The notes below the pieces were generated by a model. That model saw only the letters and a program-made list of their open reading frames with translations, was not told where the DNA came from and ran no database searches. A stretch of DNA of 64,000 nucleotides from Bugula neritina (taxonomy: Eukaryota > Animalia > Bryozoa): positions 9,508,129 through 9,572,128 of the forward strand of contig OZ037769.1 in NCBI GenBank assembly GCA_964035545.1. The letters run 5' to 3'. Positions 24,701 through 39,700 of the stretch are shown here, one piece after another. Position 1 is the stretch's first letter, and each line of letters begins with the position of its first letter. The translations under genes were made by a program, and so were the position numbers.

Positions 24701-27700
24701 GATATATAGTGTATACTAAATATTAGAGGTATATAGTGTATACTAAATACTAGAGATATATGTACCTTTACCTGTACCTGCACCTATCCCTTGGTCGGAC
24801 TGACCGTTGGGGTACCACTGTTGATCTTTGCAACCAGCCCTCTCCATCCCTTTCTGTTCTCTGTTCTCTTCAAGTTGTCGCTCAGTGTCTTTCCGGTCCA
24901 TTCTGTGATGTTGTCCTCCCATCTCTTTCTCTGCCTGCAGTTATGTACGGTTCCTTGTAGGATTGTCTTGACAAGTCCTGTGGATCTTTTGACATGCCCA
25001 TTATACCACTTCAGCTTCCGTCTCTTCACAGTAGTCAAAAGATCTTTGTGATGTCCCACTGTGTTTGTGACTCTGTTCCGTACCTCAACATTTGTGATGT
25101 GGTCTTTGTAGGAGATGCCTAGGAGCCTGCGGTAGCATCTCATTTTAGTTGCCTGTATTCTTCTCTCCAAATCTGTTGTCAGTGTCCATGACTCACAGGC
25201 GTACAGGAATATGGAGATGACCAGTGATCGCATCAGTCTGATCTTTGATCTGAACGTGATCTTTCTGTCATTCCAAACAGGCCTCAGTTTTGTCAGGGCG
25301 GCTGTTGTTTGCGCAATCCTGGAGAGAATTTCAGGCTTTGATCCTTCATCTGATACGACTGACCCAAGGTACTTGACAGTTCCAAGTTTCTCGCCATTGA
25401 CTTTGACGTCTGTGTTGATGCCGTCGGTATTGTTGGTCATCAGCTTGGTTTTCTCGGCACTGATCTCCATGCCGTACACTGCTGAGGTTGTATCCAATCG
25501 TTCTACAAGTTTGACGAGCTCTTGTTCTTCCCCTGCTAGTCCGTCAATGTCGTCTGCAAAACGCAAGTTGGTAATTGTTCTGCCTCCAATGCTGACTGTT
25601 CCATTGTGCTCTTCTAGTGCGTCAGTCATGGTTCTTTCCAAGAAGATGTTGAAGAGAATTGGAGAAAGCAAACAGCCTTGTCTGACCCCGACCGTCGTCC
25701 CGAACCAGTCCCCTATGCTTCTGTTCAGGTAAACTGCGCTGGAAGCCTTGTCATATAGTTGTTTTAATGTGTTGATCAGATTGGCGTTGATGTTATACAT
25801 CCTCATGGTTGCCCACAAAGCTGCATGCTAGACTCTGTCGAAGGCCTTCTTAAAGTCCACAAAGACATGGTAGGAGTTCTGTTGGTGTTGGAGGTACCTC
25901 TCGCACAGTATTCTGAGCTTGAAGATCTGTTTTGTTGTACTTCGCCCTGCTCTGAAACCTGCTCGTTCTTTCGTAATGATCTTCTCTGCTTGTGGTTTCA
26001 GTCTGTTCAGCAGGATCTTCAACATGACTTTACTGGGGTGGCTTATTAGGCTAATAGTGCGGTAATTCTGGCACACCTGTAGGTTGCCTTTCTTGGGGAG
26101 TGTGATCACCAGTGATTGTGTCCATAGTGTTGGCCATTTTCCTGTCTGCCAGATCTTGTTGCAGATGATTGTCAGGGCGTTGATCATGGTCTCTCCCCTT
26201 GCCTGCACTAGTTCTCCTGGTATATCATCCACTCCTGCTGACTTCCCTTTTTTCAGTGCTTTGATTGCTGCTTCAACTTTTTCTCCAAGGATGGGATGGT
26301 CATCGGTGTTGGTTGCTGGAGGGACGTTTAGTAGTTCTGGGTTTCCTGTGGCTTTAGCTTTGTACAGTTCTGAGCAGCACTCTGTCCATCGTTTTAAAAG
26401 AGATATATAGTGTGTACTAAATACTGGAGTTATTTAGTGTGCACTAAATTAAGTTACATTACATTTTTAATGATGATAAATAGGCAAATGGCTGCAGCCT
26501 TTACAAACAGCATATGTAGCTTGTTTTTAACAGCACTTAATTTCATTTTTCCTATGCATTTCCACTCAATTTTGTTTTAGATTTAAACATTTCTAATAAA
26601 CAGAGCATTTGTGGTTCTCCACCCCAAGCACCTCACACTCAGCGTGTTGACATCTACACAAAGATATTACCAGGAAATGTCATACAGCAGCAGTGTGCTG
26701 ATAATTCTATTCTTATTAGATCAAGGGTGTGCACATGTATGTCGTCAGGGAGATGGGACTCATCTTGTGGAACTAGTACTCTTTGTCAAAGTTAGTAATT
26801 CAAACTTTGTTTTCCTATATTTATATCATACTTCAATTTTTACATAGTTATACAACATACTATAAAGTGCTCTTTTGTTTAACATTGTTTTTACAGAGAT
26901 TACTACAACTCCAACAACAACTCCAACTACAACTCCAACAACAACTCCAACAACAACTCCAACTACAACTCCAACAACAACTCCAACAACAACTCCAATT
27001 ACAACTCCAACTACAACTCCAACTACAACTCTAACAACAACTCCAACAACAACTCCAACAACAACTTTAACAACAGCTCCAACAACAGTTACTACAGCAG
27101 CAGCTTCTACAATAATAAGAAATTATACCCATACAACTTCTACTCACACAGCAATGATTAATAACCAAACTACTAATGTTTCCATGGTTGCTTCCACCTC
27201 AGTTTCCAATGCTAGTGCTATGTCTTCCAGTACTTCAATTGCAGCCAGTAATTTTTATACAAATACAACTAGTTACAGTATAAAAACTACCCCAAGCAAC
27301 AGGATACTTGCCACCAACATTAAAGCAATTGATTTCAACAGTACGGCGAATGGCTTTAACAGCTTAACCTTAGATGCTAACCTTACAACAGTTAGTACAA
27401 ACAATGATAGTACAACAATTGTTGCTAACAGTGTCACAACTTATACTAATGGTGCAACAATTGGTGCTAGCAGTTGGGATTTCAACAGCACAGGGACCAG
27501 TGAAAGTAGTGTGATAGATAACACCACCAGTACAATTATTGACACTACTACTGCATCAATTTATTCTCTCAACATATCTGCTGATATTAACAGTTCAATG
27601 ACTAGCACCAGCAGATCAACATTTGTTACAAACAATGCAACAGGGAATACCAACAGCTCAACAATCAGTACAGAAAGTGGGATAACCAGTATTTCATTAT

Positions 27701-30700
27701 ATCTCACCAGGACACTGGTTAATGGCCAAACAACAGCGGACACCAGCAGTGCAACAGTTGATACCAACATTAGCATCTATACAGACATCATAAAGGGTGT
27801 TACTAGCCTACCACCAATTATCAATGAAAAAACAGATAACACTAGCGGTACAGCCACAGGCATTGGTTCTATTAATTCAACTATCCGTACAAATGCTATG
27901 TATAACATCAGTGTAACTGATGCCAACATTGCAAGAATTGATAACCGTTTGTCAATTGATATCAACAACACAAAAACAATTATGGATTCCACTAGTACAA
28001 GCAGTATAATAAGTGATAGCCCTAATACAGCAAGTAAGACCAACAGTACAGCAGCTTCGTTTAATGTTGGAAGTTGTTACAAACCAAAAGTTCCAGAATT
28101 TGCTAAGATAACACCTGATCGTGAAATTTACTCTTTGAATTCCACAATTATATACAGTTGCATAGATGGGTACGTGTTGGGTAAAGGGAATATCAGCCGT
28201 AATTGTGTGAATCAAGGAGCATGGACTGGAGTGTCGCCTCTTTGCTTACGTGAGTTATGGTACAGATTATTTGTATATTTTGAATAGTTATGTTTTAGGT
28301 TATTCAATAGTCACAATATTTTTCATGCAAAGTAATAAAATAAAATGACAATTGGCTTCTAGTAGTTATCAAATAAACTCACAGCAGAACAGGGTTAAAC
28401 AATGCTGGCCAAATTTATGACATATTAAGCATGAAATGTTTACTTGGCCAATAATAATGTCTTCTATAATTTTATCATGCATTAATATAATATATTATAT
28501 TTATTTTTATGTTTAGTTTCTAAATTGAATCGTTTGACAATTGTAGTTTTCATTCAAAAGGTAAAGTAAATTTCACTTGAATTTGGTATAACTTCAGCTC
28601 GAAGATTATTTTTAAGATTAAGTTTTAAGATAATAACACAAACTTTATTTTGCAAGTTTTAGTGTAGTGAAATTATATGCTTACTATCAAAAGTTTTTCT
28701 ATACTTATGAATGATATTCAATCACAAAATCAACTAAATTGATTTAACTAGAAACACAATGATTTTAAATAGCTGAAAGCTAGTCATTGGTTCTGTTTGA
28801 AAATTTTAACCAGAACTTTAACCAAATTAACTGTAAGAAGCGTAGCTAATATATTTGGTCACGCCTCTGACAGTTGATTTTTGTTAAATTCCTGGTTATT
28901 CAGTATGCAGTAGCATTCATCAACTGACTTATCGTTTATTCTTGTGCAAGCAGCATTTTCACGTGGAATACGTTTTCTAATGGTTTACTTAGTATTTGTA
29001 ATACACTGTGTGTAAGCTTAACATAATATTAGAGTTATTGCTAATTTCAATTGATGGAATACTGATAATAGCTGACAGGCTTCTCATTGTTTTATTATTA
29101 TTAATTTCCATCAATTACAGCCTCGTGTTGATGTATAGTCTTTATTTGTGCAGACGTCTTAAACCTGCATACATGTAGTTACAAGCTACCTGAAATTTAT
29201 CTTGAGTGAATATGATGAAAAAAATGTAAATCTCATAATTCAGTTTAATATTGGTCCTAATATCTAGACAGTGATAAAACAGAATCAGCATGTTAACCAA
29301 AGTTTAGTTTATCAATTAGGCTGCAATACCTATGCTGGAATATTATATTCAGTTTAATTTTGCTCAGTTCTAATATAAAGCTAAAATAAATTATAGGGCT
29401 ATTATTTTATTTATTTTTAAAGCATATTAACATAGTACATACATACATCCGTGCAACTATATTCAGTATGCATACGTGCCGGCACACATTAACAGACAGA
29501 TGCAACAGCACATAGATTTTTTTTGTACAATATGTACAAATAAGCATAGTAACAATACTGCAATGGTAAGTGTGCTCACATTTGTAAATTACTTATAACG
29601 ATGAATGATTTACACTTAATATTTTTAGCTGCTTCAACTTCACAGCTATGTTCAGGAGTTCTGATGGATAATGGGCAATGTCTGACACTAAACAAACATG
29701 TCAGTATATGGAAGGATGCGAAATATAGATGCGAAAATAACTCCAGGCTAGCATTTCTTGAAGGTATAATTTAAAATCGTCATTGAACCTTACGGTCTGA
29801 TATATCTGGTTGATCACCACCACCTTAAGCTAAATATTATGTATAGTATGTATAGTATGTATAGTATGTATGTATGTATACTGTATAGTATGCATTGTAT
29901 GTGTTGTATGTATAGTATGTATACTATGTATTGTATGTATAGTATGTATTGTATGTTAAGTATATATTGTATGTATAGTATGTATTGTATGTATAGTATG
30001 TATAGTATGTATAGTCATAGTAGATGACCAAAGTGAACCATTTGAATAAACTAGATGTTATAATATAAATGTGATTGTAACTGTTCTTTTGCTGACCAGC
30101 TTTGGAATGAACTAGACGAGTTTTGGTTTACATTGCTACGATGTAAAATTTGTATATTTCTATATAAAGTAATTGGCAAATTGTGTTTTGATTGTGAACA
30201 AAAATAATCAGAAATGAAGCCAATCAATTTTTGGAAAAATAATAATTAAATAGCAGTCGAAAACTTGATCTAATACTTTTGAAGGATAAAAACTATATTT
30301 TATGGTCCTTTGGCTTCAGCTCTTAGTCTACATTAACTCAAATCAAGTTTCATTTATGCACCCTTAGAATCTGCAGTGACTTTTAGATTTATAAGTGCAA
30401 GAGCTACATTTAGCACTTGGTGGTTTAAATTTGAACTGTATTTGTGTTATTTAAATACATGTAGGCTACTTGTTATTTGATGTTGAATAATCAGTAGACC
30501 TATATAATGATAGTATTTCAAATTACTTTGTATTATTCGATAATTCTATTTCTTATTTAGAAAATTTCTGCTACTATATGAATTAATATTACTAGAGCTA
30601 ATCTTATATGTTAGCAAATAATTTAAAATAAATTAACAGTAATATAACTGCTTGGTCAAGTATCTACGTACAACAAAAATTTTGTTCCAAAAGAAACATA

Positions 30701-33700
30701 CTTTCAGATACGCTTGAAGCTTCAATCTTAGATTAGCCTATTTGGTAATCTGAACCAATGATGATAGAATTAAAATATGTTTTTAAATATCTCTAAATTA
30801 TTTTTGTGCATTAAGACAGTTGTTAACTTGTTGAGAAATTATAGTAAATTATGAAAAATAAAAAAGCGATTATATCATCTCTTTGATTAGATGCTAGTAA
30901 CTTCTATACAACCAATTATTTTAATTTAACACATATAAATAATGCGTTTGATTCCTCAACTCATTAACAATCTAATTGCAGATTAAAAACTGCGTTTTGT
31001 ATTTCTTAATTCAATGGTTCAACAGGATGTTAAGGTTTTACTTACAATTTTTTTTGGTGACATCGCACTAAAAAGTAGTGCTGGAGTGTTATTTGGAAAA
31101 TGTTTTGTTATAGATAGTCTGGTATTAAATGCTTCAGAACATCTACTAACTTACAATAATGTTACCGCAGCGTGGACTGGTGGTCATAGTGCTCAGAAAT
31201 GGAAATGGACTGGTATGCACAGTTTTTATTGGCTTTATATTATTTTCATTTATTATTTAAAATTTAAAGTCTTAGCCTCTAATTTAGTTGCATACCATTT
31301 AAGTTTGATTGTTGTAAGAATATAATAATTTACCTGAGGTTCATATGTGTTGCTAAATTTTCAAAGAAGCTTCTATGCAGCTGCGGTTGGGGTTTTTACA
31401 TTTTTATTTGAAGTGCAGCAGCAAGACCTATACTTTGAATACATCAAGATAAAGTTAAGACAATCTCTTTTTATTAGTGTACTTAGAAGGTTGCAAATAG
31501 TTTTTTTTGTGAAGGTTGCAGCTGTCATTCTTTGCACACCATTTTTAAGCTTCTTTGAAACTTTAAAGCATATTTATTGTATGTTGTTTGATATTAAGCT
31601 CTATTGATTGCATTATTTGACTTCAGATTATGTGTTTCCAGATATCTAATTAATTAATTTCAATTAAAACAGATGATTCAGAAATCACAGATTTTTTTTG
31701 GGCATCTAATTCCGCTCTGAACTTTGGCAGAAATAAGCATTACATTCAATTGAGTAAGGAAGATGCCTATAAATGGAGAGCTTCACCTGGTTCTCATGTG
31801 TATGATGTTTCTGATGGCTGGTCTGTAAACAAGTATATCTGTCAGTGTGAGTAAATCAGCAAGCCATCTATAATTCATCTATAATGCAAGGATAGCACAG
31901 GCTAAACAAATCAATATTAGTTTGATATTGCTTTTTCCCAGTTCTTGAACTATTATTTAGTACCAAATTTGCCCACTAGATGTTTATTAAAGTAAGATTT
32001 TACACCTAGACAGTATAAGCTTGCAATTTAGAAAGAAAGTCTCATGTTGGATCCTTTAAAAAAACATCTAATAGTAGTAACACATGTAGAACTTTGTATC
32101 CCTTAATTCTTGCTCTCACATGTGCCTCAAATATATTATACGGACTTAGGCCTTAGCTAATTTCTAGCTTTTGACATATTATCAAGTTGTTTGTTGAGGT
32201 ATTCATTCTTATTGTCTAATTTGTGATAATCTTGATTGGATTTTCAGTTTGAAACCAATGGACTAGTTAGCATTTACTCCTTAACTAATCTGGGTTTAAA
32301 GTTGCTAATGTGGAGGGAGCCTGGTGATGAGTATAATATGATTACATCTGCTGTAACATTGTACTCAGTTTAATTGGTTCTCACACTATGAGTGTATACA
32401 TACACAAGTGAAATCACACATGCATATTGTATGGGGGTCATTCCGTGTGAAATCAACCAAATTTCAGAAAGTCCCACGCTTTTGCGTCTTAGATTTTGTT
32501 CATATTTACACCAAATGGACCTACACATGTCCTGGGTACTATTCTTGAATATTTCTGACCTGACACAAAACCTTTTGAGGAATGACTACTTCCGTGAACA
32601 AAGGTTGGGAAAAATTTTGAGGAAAATTTGTGATTTTTACTTTTAGACCAATTTATAAACACCCATATCTCAATCATTTTTTAGCCTGAGCCTTAAAATT
32701 TGCTGTGTGATTTGATAACACTTATCAATTTGCACTAGTAGCAACACATACTACAGAATTCTTTGTGTGCATATATGCTAAGCCATTGACTATTGACAAA
32801 TTTTTGTAAATTTTGAAAAAAATTGAATATTCGGCACATCATAAAAGGCGTATAAATGTTTATCCATAAATAGGTGAATATGGTGACTTTATACTTCTCA
32901 ATTTGAGTAATTTTGAAAATTATATTTTCCGAGATATAGACGCCCAAAGGGAAGAAAATGTGAAAATTCGCCCGACTTCACAAGGATGTAACCTGATGTT
33001 TGAATACAGTAAAATCTTTCAAACAAACATTTTCTGTAAGGCCGTTTAGTTTATTTTCTAGATTCATAAGTTTGAACGTCCTTATATTGTCCAAACTTAA
33101 TGTAAATTGCATGAAAAAATGGTATGCGTATGAAAATCAACAAAATGCAATTTTTCAATATAATATGTTGGGATCATACATTTTTTATTATTCACATTAG
33201 TAGTAGAGGGTGGATGGTCCTGGGACAACCCTTCCCCCGTCGAGTCTTCGACTCTCCGGTGTCAGGGATTGTCCCAGGACGCATCCACCCTCTACTACTC
33301 TATTATAATTTTTATTAATTTTTTAGTATTAATTTTAAAAAAATGTATTAATTTTTCTCTCGTTGAGTTTTTGGTGTCAAGGATTGTCTCAGGATGCATC
33401 TATCTATTACTTTATTAGTTTTTATTAAGTTTTAGAAATTATACGTTTTAGGACAGTTTTATTGAGTTTATTGTCCTAGAATTGTACGTTTTAGGACAGT
33501 TTATTACCGTTAATTTAGAATGAAAAAAATATTTTATAGAGTTTTGTTTTAGAAATTGTATGTTTTAGGACAAATATTAACTTTTATTTTAGAATGTATT
33601 TACTCGTTACTATTAGTAATAGAAATAAATTATTATATGCTAAGAATATAATAATTTATTATTAATAGCGTTTAAACGTTATAACTTGAAAATGTTGGTA

Positions 33701-36700
33701 AAGATTCGGTAGATTCGATTATATTTCCATCACTCGTTGATAATATTAATTTATTACCCGTTGCGTCTTGTAATTTAGGAATAGCGTAATTATTTATATT
33801 ATTAGTTGTAATAATATTTGAAATATTTATACCCGTTTCTATAATATTACCATCACTCGAAAGCATTAATAATTTACCTCCAATTATTGGTTGTATTTTA
33901 TTTATAGCAAAATTATTTATATTACTAGTTGTAATAATATCGCTAACGCTTAAACTACTATCCGCAACATTACCCGAAGTAGTTGAAACGGTTAATTTTT
34001 CATTCGCGGGTTGTATTTTATTTATAGCGAAATTATTTATATTACTAGTCGTAATAATATCGCTAACGCTTAAATTACTATCTATAATATTACCCGTATT
34101 AGTTGATACGGTTAATTTTTCAGTTGGCTCTTGTATAAGAGGTATTGCATAATTAGATACATTAGTTTTTGTAACGACGTCATCAACTTTTAAATTACTA
34201 TCTATAATGCGTCCATCATCAGTTGATATAGTTAATTGATTAATGGGATTTTGTATAAGAGGTACTGCGTAATTAGATACATTAGTTTTTGTAACGACAT
34301 CATCAACTTTTAAATTACTATCTATAACGCGTCCGTCGTCGGTTGATATAGTTAATTGGTTAATAGGGTTCTGTATTTTAGGCATACTCGTATCATCAAC
34401 GTATTTTTTTGTAGCCACGTCTTGATCGTCAGCAGGATCAATAACTCTAGATATTTTATTTTCCCCCATATCTAGCGTACCCGTAAGAGTACTACTACCG
34501 TTTATTAAAACGAATCTTTTCGTATTTATTTCCGTTTTTCCGCTTCCTCCGAATTTATAAACACTCATTTATTACGGTATATAAAATTCGTCTAACCCGT
34601 GTCTATACCTCCCATTATTTTTTGAGGAAGAAAGATCTAAAGTAATAAAGCCGTGAGGTTTTTGCCATCCTTTATAACAAAAGTTTTTAAATTCGTTTAA
34701 CGTTAAATCTCCGTTTATGTGATCTTGATATATATGATTTAAATTTTTTCCATCTTGAGGAAATAAGCAAATAAAATTAGCGTTTTCCCGAATAGTGTTT
34801 CTAGGTAGCTTAAAATAATTTTGCGACAAATAAAAACAATCAACGTTATTGTGTCGTCCTCTTACGTAATAACTTTCGCAAGTTTTTTGTTTTTCCAACA
34901 TTAAATCATCGAATATTATTAAATTTTTATTACTAGCGTCTAATTCGCTAGGATCATAAACGTCGTCACTAGATTCTATAAATTCGGCGTCTATATTACC
35001 GTTACCCCTACTATTTTTTAAAACACGAGTTACGTTTATACCCGCATTTATTATCGCGTCACTATTTTTAAAAAAATTTAAAATTTCTTCTTTAGTTAAT
35101 TTACGTTCGAAAGCCTTCCTCATATTTATATATTCGGGTTGAGAAAGGCTTTTACCGTAAATCATAAGTTTATCGTAATCGAGCCAATTAGGTTGTAATA
35201 GTAAGTTACAAAGTAAAGTAGTTTTACCGCATCCAGACTTTCCAACGATAAGACCTCTTATGCTTTTAGGAAGTAAAGGATTATTATTACGATTAATTTC
35301 GTTTTTCCACGAAAGATTTTCTATTTCCATTTATTATAATAAATGTATTGTTGTAAGTGTAAAATTAAAACGAAAACTCTTAATTATGAAAAAAGAGTAA
35401 GTAAAAATAATAGACTAATGGGTTACGGTAATTGCGGTCAATGCGGATGTAAAAAGACTACATTCGTTGGGTCGGGTTTAGCTAATAATTTAATAAATAA
35501 TTTACCTTTCGAATTGCATTATCCAGGTCATAATTTTTTAGGACCGGGTACTAAATTAAATAAGCGTTTAAATGACGACACGACTCCTAAAGAATGGAGT
35601 AAACCGGTAGATCGAGACGACGCTATAGCCATGAGACACGACGTATGTTACGCGCTTAATAAAGATACTAAAACTAGAAACGAAATATGCGATAAAAATA
35701 TGCTAGACGAATTAAAAGCTATACCTAATCCTACGCCCTCTGAACAGCGACACAGTCGTTTTGCCTCGGCAATAATAGGAGCGAAAAAGCGTTTAGGATG
35801 GGGATGGACGAACGAGTTAGCCGAAGAATTACATAAACCCGTACAAAAAAAATTTCGTAAAAGACGAGTTTGGGTATCGGGTATTGATAATATTTGGGCG
35901 GCTGATTTGGTTGATATGACTGAATTCGCTAAATTTAATAACGGTTATAAATATTTACTAACGGTAATAGACGTATTTTCAAAATACGGTTGGATAATAC
36001 TTTTAAAAAATAAGACCGGAAAAGCGACGGCTTTAGCTTTAAAAACAATTTTAACTCGTCGTAAGCCACAACATTTATGGGTTGATAAGGGAAAAGAGTT
36101 TTATAATAAAGACGTAAAGTCCTTAATAAACTTATATTCTACGGAAAATGAAGAAAAGTCTAGCGTAGTAGAAAGGTGGAATAGAACTATGAAAGAGCGA
36201 ATGTTTAAATATTTTTCAGCGAATAATACTTATAAATATATAGACGTACTAAAAGATTTAGTAAAACGGTATAACGAGACTAAACATTCGTCTATTGGAA
36301 TGACACCGATTGAAGCTAGTGACCCTTCTAATGAAAATAAAGTACGCGTAAAATTATATCCAAACTTACCAGCGCCTTCTAAACCTAAATTTGCTATAGG
36401 TGATAGAGTACGTATACCGCGTAAGAAACGAACGTTTGAAAAAGGTTATACCGTTAGATGGACGGAGGAAGTGTTTACTATAAGTAAAATATTATATACT
36501 AATCCGACTACTTATAAATTAACTGACTCGGGCGGGGAAGAAATTCAAGGATCTTTTTACGAACGGGAATTACAAAAGACGAGTCAAGAAATGTATAGAA
36601 TAGAGCGCGTAATTAAAAAGAAAGGTAAAAAGGCTTTAGTAAAATGGTTGGGTTATCCCGATTCTCAAAACTCTTGGGTAAATTTAAACGTTTTAGAACA

Positions 36701-39700
36701 ATTATAGTGGACACAAATGTAGACACTAGACACAAAAGTGGACACAAATGTAGACACTAGACACAAAAGTGGACACAAATGTAGACACTAGACACAAAAG
36801 TGGACACAAACACATTTGTGTCCATAAAAAGTGGACACAAATTAATATATAATAAATGAGTTACTTAAAGATTTACGACCCTATAAAAAGAGATAAAACC
36901 GTACAAGATTTTATTTCTCAAAAGAATAAATTAAAAGAAAATTTTAAACGAGAACGTGAGCGAGAATTAAATGCCGCGATGGCTCAAGAAAAATATTTTG
37001 AACCCGTAACGACTTCGCAAGCTCAAACGACTGACGCGTTAAAACAATTGCTTACATTACCCAATTATAATGTTCAACCGGCTATAACGGATGGAGTTAT
37101 AAATTTAGACGAATTTACGCAAAACGCTTTAGCTGGCTTAGAACCCGGCGCTTATAACGTAAAGTGGGATGGTAATAGACACGTTATTGGTATAAAACCT
37201 ATAAGCTTTAATGATGGTAAAATAATTTTTGAAAACAAAGAATATCCGGCGACTAGAGGACTTTTAAGTCTTTTAACGCGTAAAACGCCTATAGGATACG
37301 ATGATAATGATTTAGCGAATTACGCTAATATACTCGATAATAGCGGCGCTATATATCAAAGTAAACACGGTCCTATAGATAAAAATAGTGACAAGTGGAG
37401 ACGTATCGTTAGACCTATTTGGGAACAATTATATCCTCAAAGAGCGAAACTCGCTGATAGTAAAAAAGCTAAAAGGCAAGTCGGTGATGGAGTAGTATAT
37501 TTATCGTCTGATCCTAACGCTTTAATAGAACGACTCGAACTTTTAATTTCTAGCGCTAAAGCCGGAAATACGGGAGTGCGAAACGAAATTGTGTCTATAT
37601 TAGACGAATTACTTAGAATGAAAATTATTACTCATGATTATTATAAAAGTATTCTCGTATAATAAATGTACGTTTATGATAAAAGACAACGATTACAAAG
37701 ACACTACGCCGGTGGTGGAATAATTGATACCATTAGGAATGTAGTAACTAAAATAGCTAGTAATTCCAGCGTAAGAGAATTAGGTAAAAAGGCTATAGCT
37801 AAAGCGGGTACCGCGGCCGGTGAAAAAATTGTTAACGCGATTAAGAAAAGAAGACAAAAAAAGTTAAACGCTAAAAGTCAAGCTATATTACAAAAACTTA
37901 GTTTAGCTAAAGATAATAGTAATATAAGTAATATTTTAGAAGGAAGCGGACAAGCTATAGCTTATTAAGAAATTATTTTTACTATAATAAATGGACTCTC
38001 TAAATATTACGCAAAAAATTGTACTCGATACGAGCGTAGAGCGCGATCAGGTACACGAATACGAACCCGTAACGGGAACGAATTTAAATTACCCCGGTGA
38101 AATTAGAATAGTTATTAATCAACAAGATTTGTACGTTCAGCCGAGTAAAAGTTATTTGATTATCGAAGGACGTTTAACAAAAAATGATGGAACCGCTTAC
38201 GCCGACGCCGACTTAGTAACGTTAATTAATAACGGTATGGCTTATTTGTTTAAAAGTATTAGATATCAACTCGACGGACACGACTTGGAATATATAAATA
38301 ATCCCGGACACGCTTCGACTATGATGGGTTTACTAACTTATCCCGACGACTACGGCAAGTCGAGAGGTCTTAATCAGTTGTGGTCAAAAGATACTACCGC
38401 AGCCGCTGCCGCCGCTAATTTAGGTTTTAACGCGCGTCAAATTTATATTATACAAAAGCCTGACCCTAAAGGTACTTTTAGTATTAAAGTGGATCTCAGA
38501 CATTTGTTCGGGTTCGCTGACGATTATGAAAAAGTATTATACGGTATAAAACATCAATTAACGCTAGTACGCGATACCAACGATAACGCTATATTTAGAG
38601 CAAACGGTGTAGACGCGGGAAAAATAACGTTAGATAAAGTGTCGTGGTGGATGCCTCACGTAACGCCTAGTTTTGAAATGAAGCATAAACTCTATAAAAT
38701 TATAGAGAGTAAGGCGCAACTACCCCTAATTTATAGATCTAGATGGTGTGATAGTATCGCGGTGCCGCAAACTACTAATTTTACGTGGCGTTTGGGTTCT
38801 AGAGGAGATACGGAAAAACCTAAATATATTATCGTAGGTTTTCAAACGAATAAGACTGAAAGTCAAACGGCTAATCCGGCAGTATTTGATCACGTTAACG
38901 TTAAAAGTATATACGCGATGCTAAATAGTGAGCGGTATCCCGAAGTTGATTACGATATAGATTTTGCTAAAATGAAGTTTAGTAGAGTGTACGGAGACGC
39001 TTCTAAATTTTGTGGAGAATATTACGGTATAAACGAGCTAATCGCTTATTCAAACGTATTACCTTCGGAATATAAAGATCTTTACGCTTTGTTCGTAATA
39101 GACGTTAGTAAGCAAAGCGAAGCTCTTAAAAGTAGCGTAGCCGATATTCAATTGAGAGTTCAGTTTAGTCAAAACGTGCCGGCTGATACTCAGGCGTACG
39201 CGTTAATTCTATCGGATAAAACTATGTCTCTCGGTTCCGATGGAAATAATTTAAAAGTTATATAAATGGAAAATAAATTATTAAGAGAAATTGCCGATAA
39301 TACGGCCTCTAAACAAACGATGACTATAGGAGTTACCGATACTAAAACGAGAATAATTACTCAACTTAATCCGCCTATAGAGTTAAATAAAAATAAAAAA
39401 TACGAAATGTGTCTTATTAGTTTAGATACGTTTTATTCTTTTCCAAACATTAGTACCGATAGAAATTCCTATAGATGGTCTAAAGACGGTGGTACTACGT
39501 GGCATTTAGTTTCGTTACCAGTCGGAGTGTACGAATTAGATCAACTAGAAGAAGCTATTCAAGACGAAATAGTAAAAGAGGGGGGTAATAGAAACGGTAT
39601 TACTTTGCAAGCTAATAAAGTAACTTTTAGAATTATACTTAAATTAAAACCTAATTACCAAATAGATTTTAACGTTGAAAATTCTTTAAGAGACGTTTTA

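Follow-up and report, generated by a model that had tools for sequence, protein, structure and literature searches.

Two overlapping gene-start motifs at a palindromic head-to-head junction in a Bugula neritina Polinton, a candidate two-way initiator of the poxvirus/asfarvirus late type

Do animal Mavericks (Polintons) replicate alone, or do they need a giant virus? Activation of Mavericks by giant viruses has already been proposed in print (accessible text of PMC8097293), and co-packaging with entomopoxviruses hints at such a need (accessible text of PMC11296320). The question is raised here by a junction in the 64,000-nucleotide stretch of Bugula neritina DNA that we analyzed (the window), in which two divergent genes begin within one short palindrome. 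A head-to-head junction is one place where the start motif of these elements is unreadable as a stop, a poly(A) or a coupling signal, and because this one measures only 18 bp, the helper-virus question becomes testable with 18 bases, setting host Pol II against a viral polymerase. If a two-way start of the poxvirus type were true, the element would borrow the machinery of a large helper virus.

The junction lies in a complete Polinton/Maverick (adintovirus) provirus of 14,194 bp (33199..47392), delimited by terminal inverted repeats and a target-site duplication and carrying hallmark genes. The repeats measure 145 nt each, the left one (33199..33343, plus strand) beginning with AGTAGT and the right one (47248..47392, minus strand) being 99% complementary to it, and the 6-bp duplication CACATT stands at both element ends (33193-33198 and 47393-47398). 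The hallmark genes recognized by Pfam encode an rve integrase, an A32 ATPase, a DJR capsid and a C5 cysteine protease, the last with a weak match (E 0.004, below the cut-off). An ORF of 1003 aa shows PolB-like motifs by eye, and Pfam and PHROGs returned for it only endonuclease VII and one unnamed family; by these motifs, it is a putative protein-primed family B polymerase. The element also contains a PLA2 domain, which the accessible text of 10.64898/2026.06.19.733378 describes as common in group 2 Mavericks. Searches of Pfam and PHROGs detected no RNA polymerase gene in the element, no clear transcription factor emerged among its ORFs (the best candidate was an Arc-like match, E 0.006), and for several ORFs the searches of Pfam, the atlas and PHROGs gave no usable function. 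The CpG observed/expected ratio is 2.08 in the element versus 0.46 and 0.44 in the host flanks, which, judging by LINE fragments and CpG depletion, look like animal DNA. The empty-site joint is present in contigs of another sequencing run, which suggests a recent insertion.

The sequence at 35328-35345, CATTTATTATAATAAATG, is identical to its own reverse complement, with arms of 9 and no further extension possible. It includes both start codons: CAT at 35328-35330 is the minus-strand start of the ATPase gene and ATG at 35343 the plus-strand start of the PLA2X–integrase gene, with 12 nt between them. On both strands the start reads TATAATAAATG (35335..35345, plus; 35328..35338, minus), and the central TATA (35335-35338) is common to the two. 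These observations confirm what the initial annotation had described, namely a perfect 18-bp palindrome holding both divergent ATGs 12 bp apart, each within the same motif. The palindrome as such is ordinary and not beyond chance. Palindromes of this length are expected 0.17 times in the element and 0.53 times in the 64-kb window, 64 of 200 sequences simulated for the element with an order-3 Markov model contained one, and the host DNA holds another that is not a microsatellite (28484-28501). Two copies of TATAATAAATG overlapped on TATA give exactly a 12-nt gap, and two random starts, drawn from the element's other 14, share the same last six bases with a probability of 0.27-0.33. Because the motif and the 12-nt gap yield a chance match this often, the perfect symmetry needs no extra cause and is a by-product of two overlapping start motifs.

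The start motif itself is the non-random part of the observation. The pattern TATA[AT]{0,2}TAAATG occurs 14 times in the 14.2-kb element, 12 of them at ORF starts, and 49.8 kb of host flank contain not one copy. It opens 12 of the 16 element genes; TATA stands 3-4 nt ahead of the ATG in 12/16, and TAA directly precedes the ATG (TAAATG) in 14/16 starts, both divergent ones included. Besides the palindrome, TATAATAAATG is found on the plus strand at the starts of a 268-aa ORF (36848..36858), a 100-aa ORF, where it overlaps the preceding stop (37658..37668), the major capsid gene (motif at 37983..37993; gene at 37991-39265, PF21738) and the C5 protease gene (45638..45648). Also on the plus strand, TATATAAATG opens ORFs of 252 aa (39259..39268, overlapping the major capsid stop; a putative minor capsid gene by position), 189 aa (40030..40039), 130 aa (40619..40628), 239 aa (41987..41996) and 170 aa (46041..46050). 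An apparent avoidance of TAAATG inside genes (z -4.0) fell to z -1.8 after control for CpG bias and was rejected as a signal, being mostly a CpG effect.

The leftward gene of the pair (34572..35330, minus strand) encodes an A32/FtsK-type packaging ATPase of 252 aa (Pfam Pox_A32, E 2e-8; 1474 homologues), and the rightward gene (35343..36707, plus strand) is a single ORF of 454 aa in which Pfam recognizes a DUF5679 zinc finger, a PLA2 domain (PLA2X), an rve integrase and a chromodomain. The initial annotation had considered that the true starts might be downstream ATGs. The next Met comes too late in both proteins, at residue 56 of the ATPase, beyond Walker A (30-37), and at residue 26 of the PLA2X–integrase, beyond the first CxxC; both N-termini align in register with those of relatives, at matching ATGs. 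These features support both ATGs of the palindrome as the real start codons. In the initial codons of the ATPase gene, the third positions are free to vary, and therefore no conserved promoter element is seen there.

The relatives are a ranked subset from an alignment scan, made up of 3 viral loci and, out of 508 metagenome matches, the best 80; viral contigs scanned with a single protein yielded none, and a degenerate search for the junction pattern returned 120 viral loci, none with a Polinton match. Both ATGs stand head-to-head in 73 of the 83 relatives (64 by the alignment script and 9 by a rescue rule); in four others the partner starts nearby with the ATPase start unplaced, and six were unresolved or had another neighbour. 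These counts overstate independence, because the 64 script-found relatives and the window, 65 loci in all, fall into 34 clusters when grouped at 85% identity, and 20 of the loci share a single cluster. The gap between the ATGs spans 7-47 nt, with a median of 27 and an AT content of 92%. Four loci (L025, L081, L100 and L101) have a gap of just 7 nt, CATTTATTAAATG, where both strands read TAAATG; an upstream promoter could not fit into so short a gap. Matching 6-base arms occur in 2 of 54 distinct spacers of at least 18 nt, and the two arms of a spacer are no more alike (4.63 of 8) than they are to other starts of the same locus (4.92 of 8; p=0.20, 43 spacers with other genes). What is conserved across these relatives is the short AT-rich head-to-head junction and not the dyad, so that of the feature for which the initial annotation had looked to related elements, the arrangement is kept and the symmetry is not. 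The 18-mer of the palindrome also opens an ORF of at least 75 aa in 11 of 22 IMG/VR loci, some of these ORFs being the same gene, and opens ORFs in both directions at one locus (L021, in a giant-virus bin); 6 of the 22 loci lie in giant-virus bins, and none is linked to Bugula neritina as host.

Divergent and tandem starts of the relatives carry the signature at similar rates, AAATG standing at 81/105 and 87/113 and TAAATG at 25/105 and 24/113, respectively. Since the divergent starts, which have no same-strand gene upstream, match the tandem ones, the motif is not only a stop, a poly(A) or a reinitiation site. Of 220 starts (16 from the window), 84 have a TATA-box word at -11..-4 and 10 have one at -70..-33. 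No TATAWAW occurs within 100 nt upstream of either ATG of the palindrome; judged by position, the start motif does not qualify as a Pol II TATA box of these two genes. The Kozak context has a purine at -3. The base at -3 is A in 136, T in 78, G in 4 and C in 2 of the 220 starts, and T in 14/16 window genes. By its composition, the start motif is thus a poor Kozak context, although T at -3 would be harmless if transcription begins at the A's after it. Among 241 pooled starts, the triplet before the ATG is AAA in 109 and TAA in 73, with A at -2/-1 in 85-90%, and the AAAATG that prevails in relatives also fits an A-rich translation context. The upstream DNA is AT-only, and in the same pool T leads at -16..-11 (0.42-0.62), positions that fall in the opposite arm at head-to-head starts. 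A splice-acceptor or trans-splicing reading was rejected, there being no AG ahead of the window ATGs. The initial proposal that the motif is itself a bidirectional promoter or initiator therefore stands in part: it is favored by the presence of the motif where no same-strand gene ends upstream and by the lack of a Pol II TATA box at a usable distance, whereas a role of the perfect symmetry is not supported, given its chance probability and the indifferent likeness of the arms in relatives.

At the 3' ends, internal AATAAA is not avoided in coding DNA, with 53 occurrences in the element against 51.3 expected (14 in the polymerase gene alone) and 224 against 196 in 267 dereplicated coding sequences of relatives; the controls of this test were all cytoplasmic-type loci, which gave 0.93. 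After stops, AATAAA occurs in 112/239 cases versus 63 in shuffles, mostly where the next start lies, with a higher trend at tandem (42/113) than at divergent starts (28/105; p=0.11). This enrichment and the tandem trend are compatible with a poly(A) role of the motif. Hairpins are enriched after stops and far from general (15/239, or 6%, in relatives versus 2.6 in shuffles). They lie at or after 4/16 stops of the window: a perfect one of 15 bp (33624..33660, minus strand), 11 nt past the stop of the last leftward gene (fibre-like, 33672-34568); a perfect one of 11 bp past the integrase stop (36814..36842, plus strand), at the end of a 31-nt tandem repeat; a perfect one of 13 bp at the stop of a 159-aa minus-strand ORF (41152..41180, minus strand); and one of 16 bp with one mismatch at the stop of an 88-aa ORF (41931..41968, plus strand). 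T-tracts follow 35/239 stops against 25 expected. A depletion of T5NT (55 versus 86) was dropped as evidence, the mirror A-run being depleted as well.

We propose, with a probability of roughly 0.45, that the junction works in both directions as an initiator of the poxvirus/asfarvirus late type and that a co-infecting large DNA virus supplies the polymerase for the near-leaderless transcripts. Two copies of TATAATAAATG overlapping head-to-head on one TATA would constitute the two-way initiator, and the first transcribed base would fall within the common TATA or among the three A's that adjoin each ATG. The predicted leaders would hold some 0-7 templated bases, possibly extended by slippage into a poly(A) head. 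The ATPase and the PLA2X–integrase, both predicted virion or packaging proteins, would be switched on together, and late in infection, because the two-way initiator would use the polymerase of the helper virus; that the helper supplies this polymerase, as in virophages, is the weakest step. The T at -3, the TATA at about -10, which is not a Pol II distance, the undepleted internal AATAAA and the occasional 3' hairpins fit late initiators of the poxvirus/ASFV type. A wider and more speculative reading, in which we place clearly less than even confidence, is that animal Polintons of the PLA2X type parasitize large DNA viruses of animals in the manner of virophages; they would carry a late helper initiator on every gene and the smallest possible two-way promoter (7-12 nt) for the ATPase and PLA2X–integrase, and the lineage variant, TAAATG or AAAATG, would point to the helper family.

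A serious rival, though a less likely one, is nuclear transcription by host RNA polymerase II: the AT-rich junction would be an open region or a two-way promoter that lacks a TATA box, each transcript would begin within the gene opposite, and the motif would serve both as an A-rich translation context and as a poly(A) signal. The integrase and chromodomain of an element that integrates in the nucleus would suit this explanation, as would the AATAAA excess after stops and the prevalence of A at -2/-1. One low-depth contig covers the palindrome (35150-35408), from a run whose identification as RNA is a guess and which may be DNA. Polinton genes are expressed in ordinary coral transcriptomes (PMC11131425) and cavefish tissues contain adintovirus transcripts (PMC8502044), with no helper named in the accessible text of either source. 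Against Pol II stand the T at -3 in 14/16 window genes and the G there in only 4/220 starts, the mere 10/220 starts with TATA words at a Pol II distance, the 53 internal AATAAA without depletion, 14 of them in the polymerase gene, and the free third positions of the first ATPase codons, where no conserved promoter element is seen. The motif could otherwise be a translation device, TAA-ATG coupling stop to start on long polycistronic RNAs, with the palindrome as a spill-over of the same AT bias. Stops do abut or overlap the next start at six window junctions, and the gap from the ATPase to the minor capsid gene is 0-3 nt in 12/36 relatives; however, the AT-rich tandem gaps of relatives have medians of 20.5 and 28 nt, and the divergent starts carry the full motif with no same-strand gene upstream, a signature repeated in relatives, which makes coupling improbable.

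It is very improbable, in our estimate, that the perfect dyad is itself functional, as the site of a dimeric regulator, a cruciform or an RNA hairpin controlling both genes. Among the matches listed, two other samples show the palindrome unchanged in the dominant family, and subfamilies 80-87% alike in the same host keep the 12-nt spacing without gaps; four relatives have 6-bp arms around one base, and the ORF at 41994-42713 has a Rho_N-like nucleic-acid-binding N-terminus. Set against this are the chance of 0.27-0.33 given the motif, the rarity of 6/6 arms in the longer spacers (2/54) with no excess symmetry, and an RNA fold of only -2.0 kcal/mol, equalled in 12/200 shuffles. A second head-to-head junction of the element (41654..41671, CATTTATATAAAAAAATG), also with 12 nt between the ATGs, is asymmetric, although its plus-strand gene may start at 41699 instead. 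The lowest standing among these explanations belongs to an initiator read by an element-encoded factor or by a nuclear helper polymerase, for instance that of a baculovirus-like virus. The late motif of baculoviruses is TAAG, which differs from the motif here, and the element has neither a detected polymerase nor a transcription factor better than the Arc-like match (E 0.006). In its favor are the several element ORFs with no assigned function, the mobilization of insect Mavericks during baculovirus expression (accessible text of PMC8502044) and the VLTF3 gene of some coral elements (accessible text of PMC11131425).

The type of element is already known, and the type of promoter is known from poxviruses and ASFV; such a motif in an animal Polinton appears to be new. 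In the open-access literature searched, we found no description of a TAAATG-type start motif in animal Polintons, and the open-access literature likewise yielded no cis-acting evidence for helper dependence of animal Mavericks. A published promoter motif of nematode Polintons was looked for in the Polinton literature and not found, and a term look-up showed the word "promoter" to be absent from the accessible main texts of Starrett 2021, Jeong 2023, Barth 2024, the coral paper and the 2026 framework preprint.

Compared with known systems, the element shares with group 2 Maverick-Polintons, or alpha-type adintoviruses, the terminal repeats starting with AGT, the 6-bp target duplication, the rve integrase with chromodomain, the A32 ATPase, the DJR capsid, the C5 protease and PLA2X (accessible texts of PMC8502044 and 10.64898/2026.06.19.733378); it differs in that PLA2X and integrase are fused in one ORF. 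Divergent elements of the mavpol2 clade were sequenced from entomopoxvirus occlusion bodies, according to the available text of PMC11296320. In mimivirus, hairpins mark transcript 3' ends (hairpin rule; PMC4402537), a rule that the element does not follow, with hairpins at 4/16 window stops and 15/239 in relatives. The pGKL cytoplasmic linear plasmids of yeast have a TAAAN initiator and stem-loop terminators (PMC6211774, in the part available). They are like the element in being protein-primed and linear, with a TAAA initiator and 3' stem-loops, but encode their own RNA polymerase and have an upstream conserved sequence, neither of which was found in the element.

The motif of the window, TATA and then TAAATG, holds both ASFV-type and vaccinia-type words. 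ASFV late genes use the initiator TA(+1)TA, with leaders of a median 9 nt (accessible text of PMC7163114); the element resembles them in the TATA 3-4 nt before the ATG and in the predicted very short AT-rich leaders, and differs in that no ASFV-like poly(T) terminator pattern is established (T-tracts at 35/239 versus 25). In vaccinia, intermediate and late genes start at a TAAAT initiator on which polymerase slippage adds a poly(A) head (accessible texts of PMC6211774 and PMC5294985), and poxviruses have overlapping bidirectional promoters between divergent genes (accessible text of PMC3185747). Among the loose contig ends listed for the element, none showed a start of this kind with a poly(A) head. 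A T-rich core 5-7 nt upstream, as in vaccinia, would here fall in the opposite arm and gene, and the element, unlike vaccinia, has no detected polymerase; the likeness consists in TAAATG with the ATG inside the initiator and in candidate back-to-back promoters that take up all the space from one divergent gene to the other. In virophages, promoters are common to virophage and helper, mavirus having the TCTA of CroV and Gezel-14T pairing with PgV (PMC8547959 and 10.1101/2022.07.28.501842, in their accessible parts). Although the motif is another one, the host is an animal and a helper is known only for the virophages, in both cases a small element that integrates and codes for capsids has most of its genes preceded by a single short motif set in AT-rich DNA.

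Base composition set the element apart in the window: its CpG observed/expected ratio reached 2.08 (33199-47392), that of the host flanks was 0.46 and 0.44, and the values among the relatives ranged from 0.1 to 1.67. We also found an empty site, since a joint in a contig of the sequencing run X1 skips the element (window 33191-47392), which makes it likely that this insertion is polymorphic and young. The family itself is multicopy, with subfamilies approximately 80-99% alike. The host DNA carries an older inverted repeat with arms at 32567-33198 and 48927-49575 (91-92% complementary), and the element sits in one of these arms or next to it. The host flank at 24784-26187 and 27154-28287 showed LINE reverse-transcriptase fragments, as well as a Ser/Thr-rich exon with a sushi-like domain at the end (by eye).

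Inside the element, a 31-nt tandem repeat located 3' of the integrase stop (36706-36842) ends in an inverted copy, resulting in a hairpin, and short repeats were also observed upstream of the 268-aa gene in the relatives. A 29-nt stretch around the start of the 130-aa ORF recurs as a duplicate at 41030-41058 (97% alike), which provides a spare gene-start motif at ATG 41055, where no long ORF follows. Additionally, two neighboring paralogous ORFs of 170 and 174 aa (46048-47081) could not be assigned to any known family in Pfam and PHROGs searches.

The palindromic 18-mer recurred identically in an IMG/VR contig from a giant-virus bin (L021:3001-3018), placed between a 139-aa ORF (DUF2177) and a 279-aa ORF (SprT-like) that are divergently oriented. 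In one lineage of relatives (the L054-L105 cluster, e.g., L060 and L092), the shortest, 7-nt head-to-head form, CATTTATTAAATG, is present in full within the spacers of 20-26 nt, and another TAAATG comes after it; this arrangement resembles a duplication of the start region.

In the element, TAAATG is missing from two starts, one of them the polymerase ATG, and the polymerase ORF overlaps the 239-aa ORF out of frame at an A-run (window 41994-45649); judging from both features, this ATG may not serve as a start in its own right. The point at which PLA2X and integrase meet in the relatives is likewise marked by an A-run, there of variable length, and all three frame relations were found across 47 related loci; in the window both are fused in a single ORF (35343-36707). 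With the window counted in the frame 0 class (n = 48), the relation was 0 in 13, -1 in 21, and +1 in 14. These frame differences may reflect decay, or assembly error in the A-runs. The integrase frame of the relatives mostly lacks a start of its own, which, in combination with the A-run occurring in all three frame relations, suggests either polymerase slippage or a frameshift resembling that of Gag-Pol.
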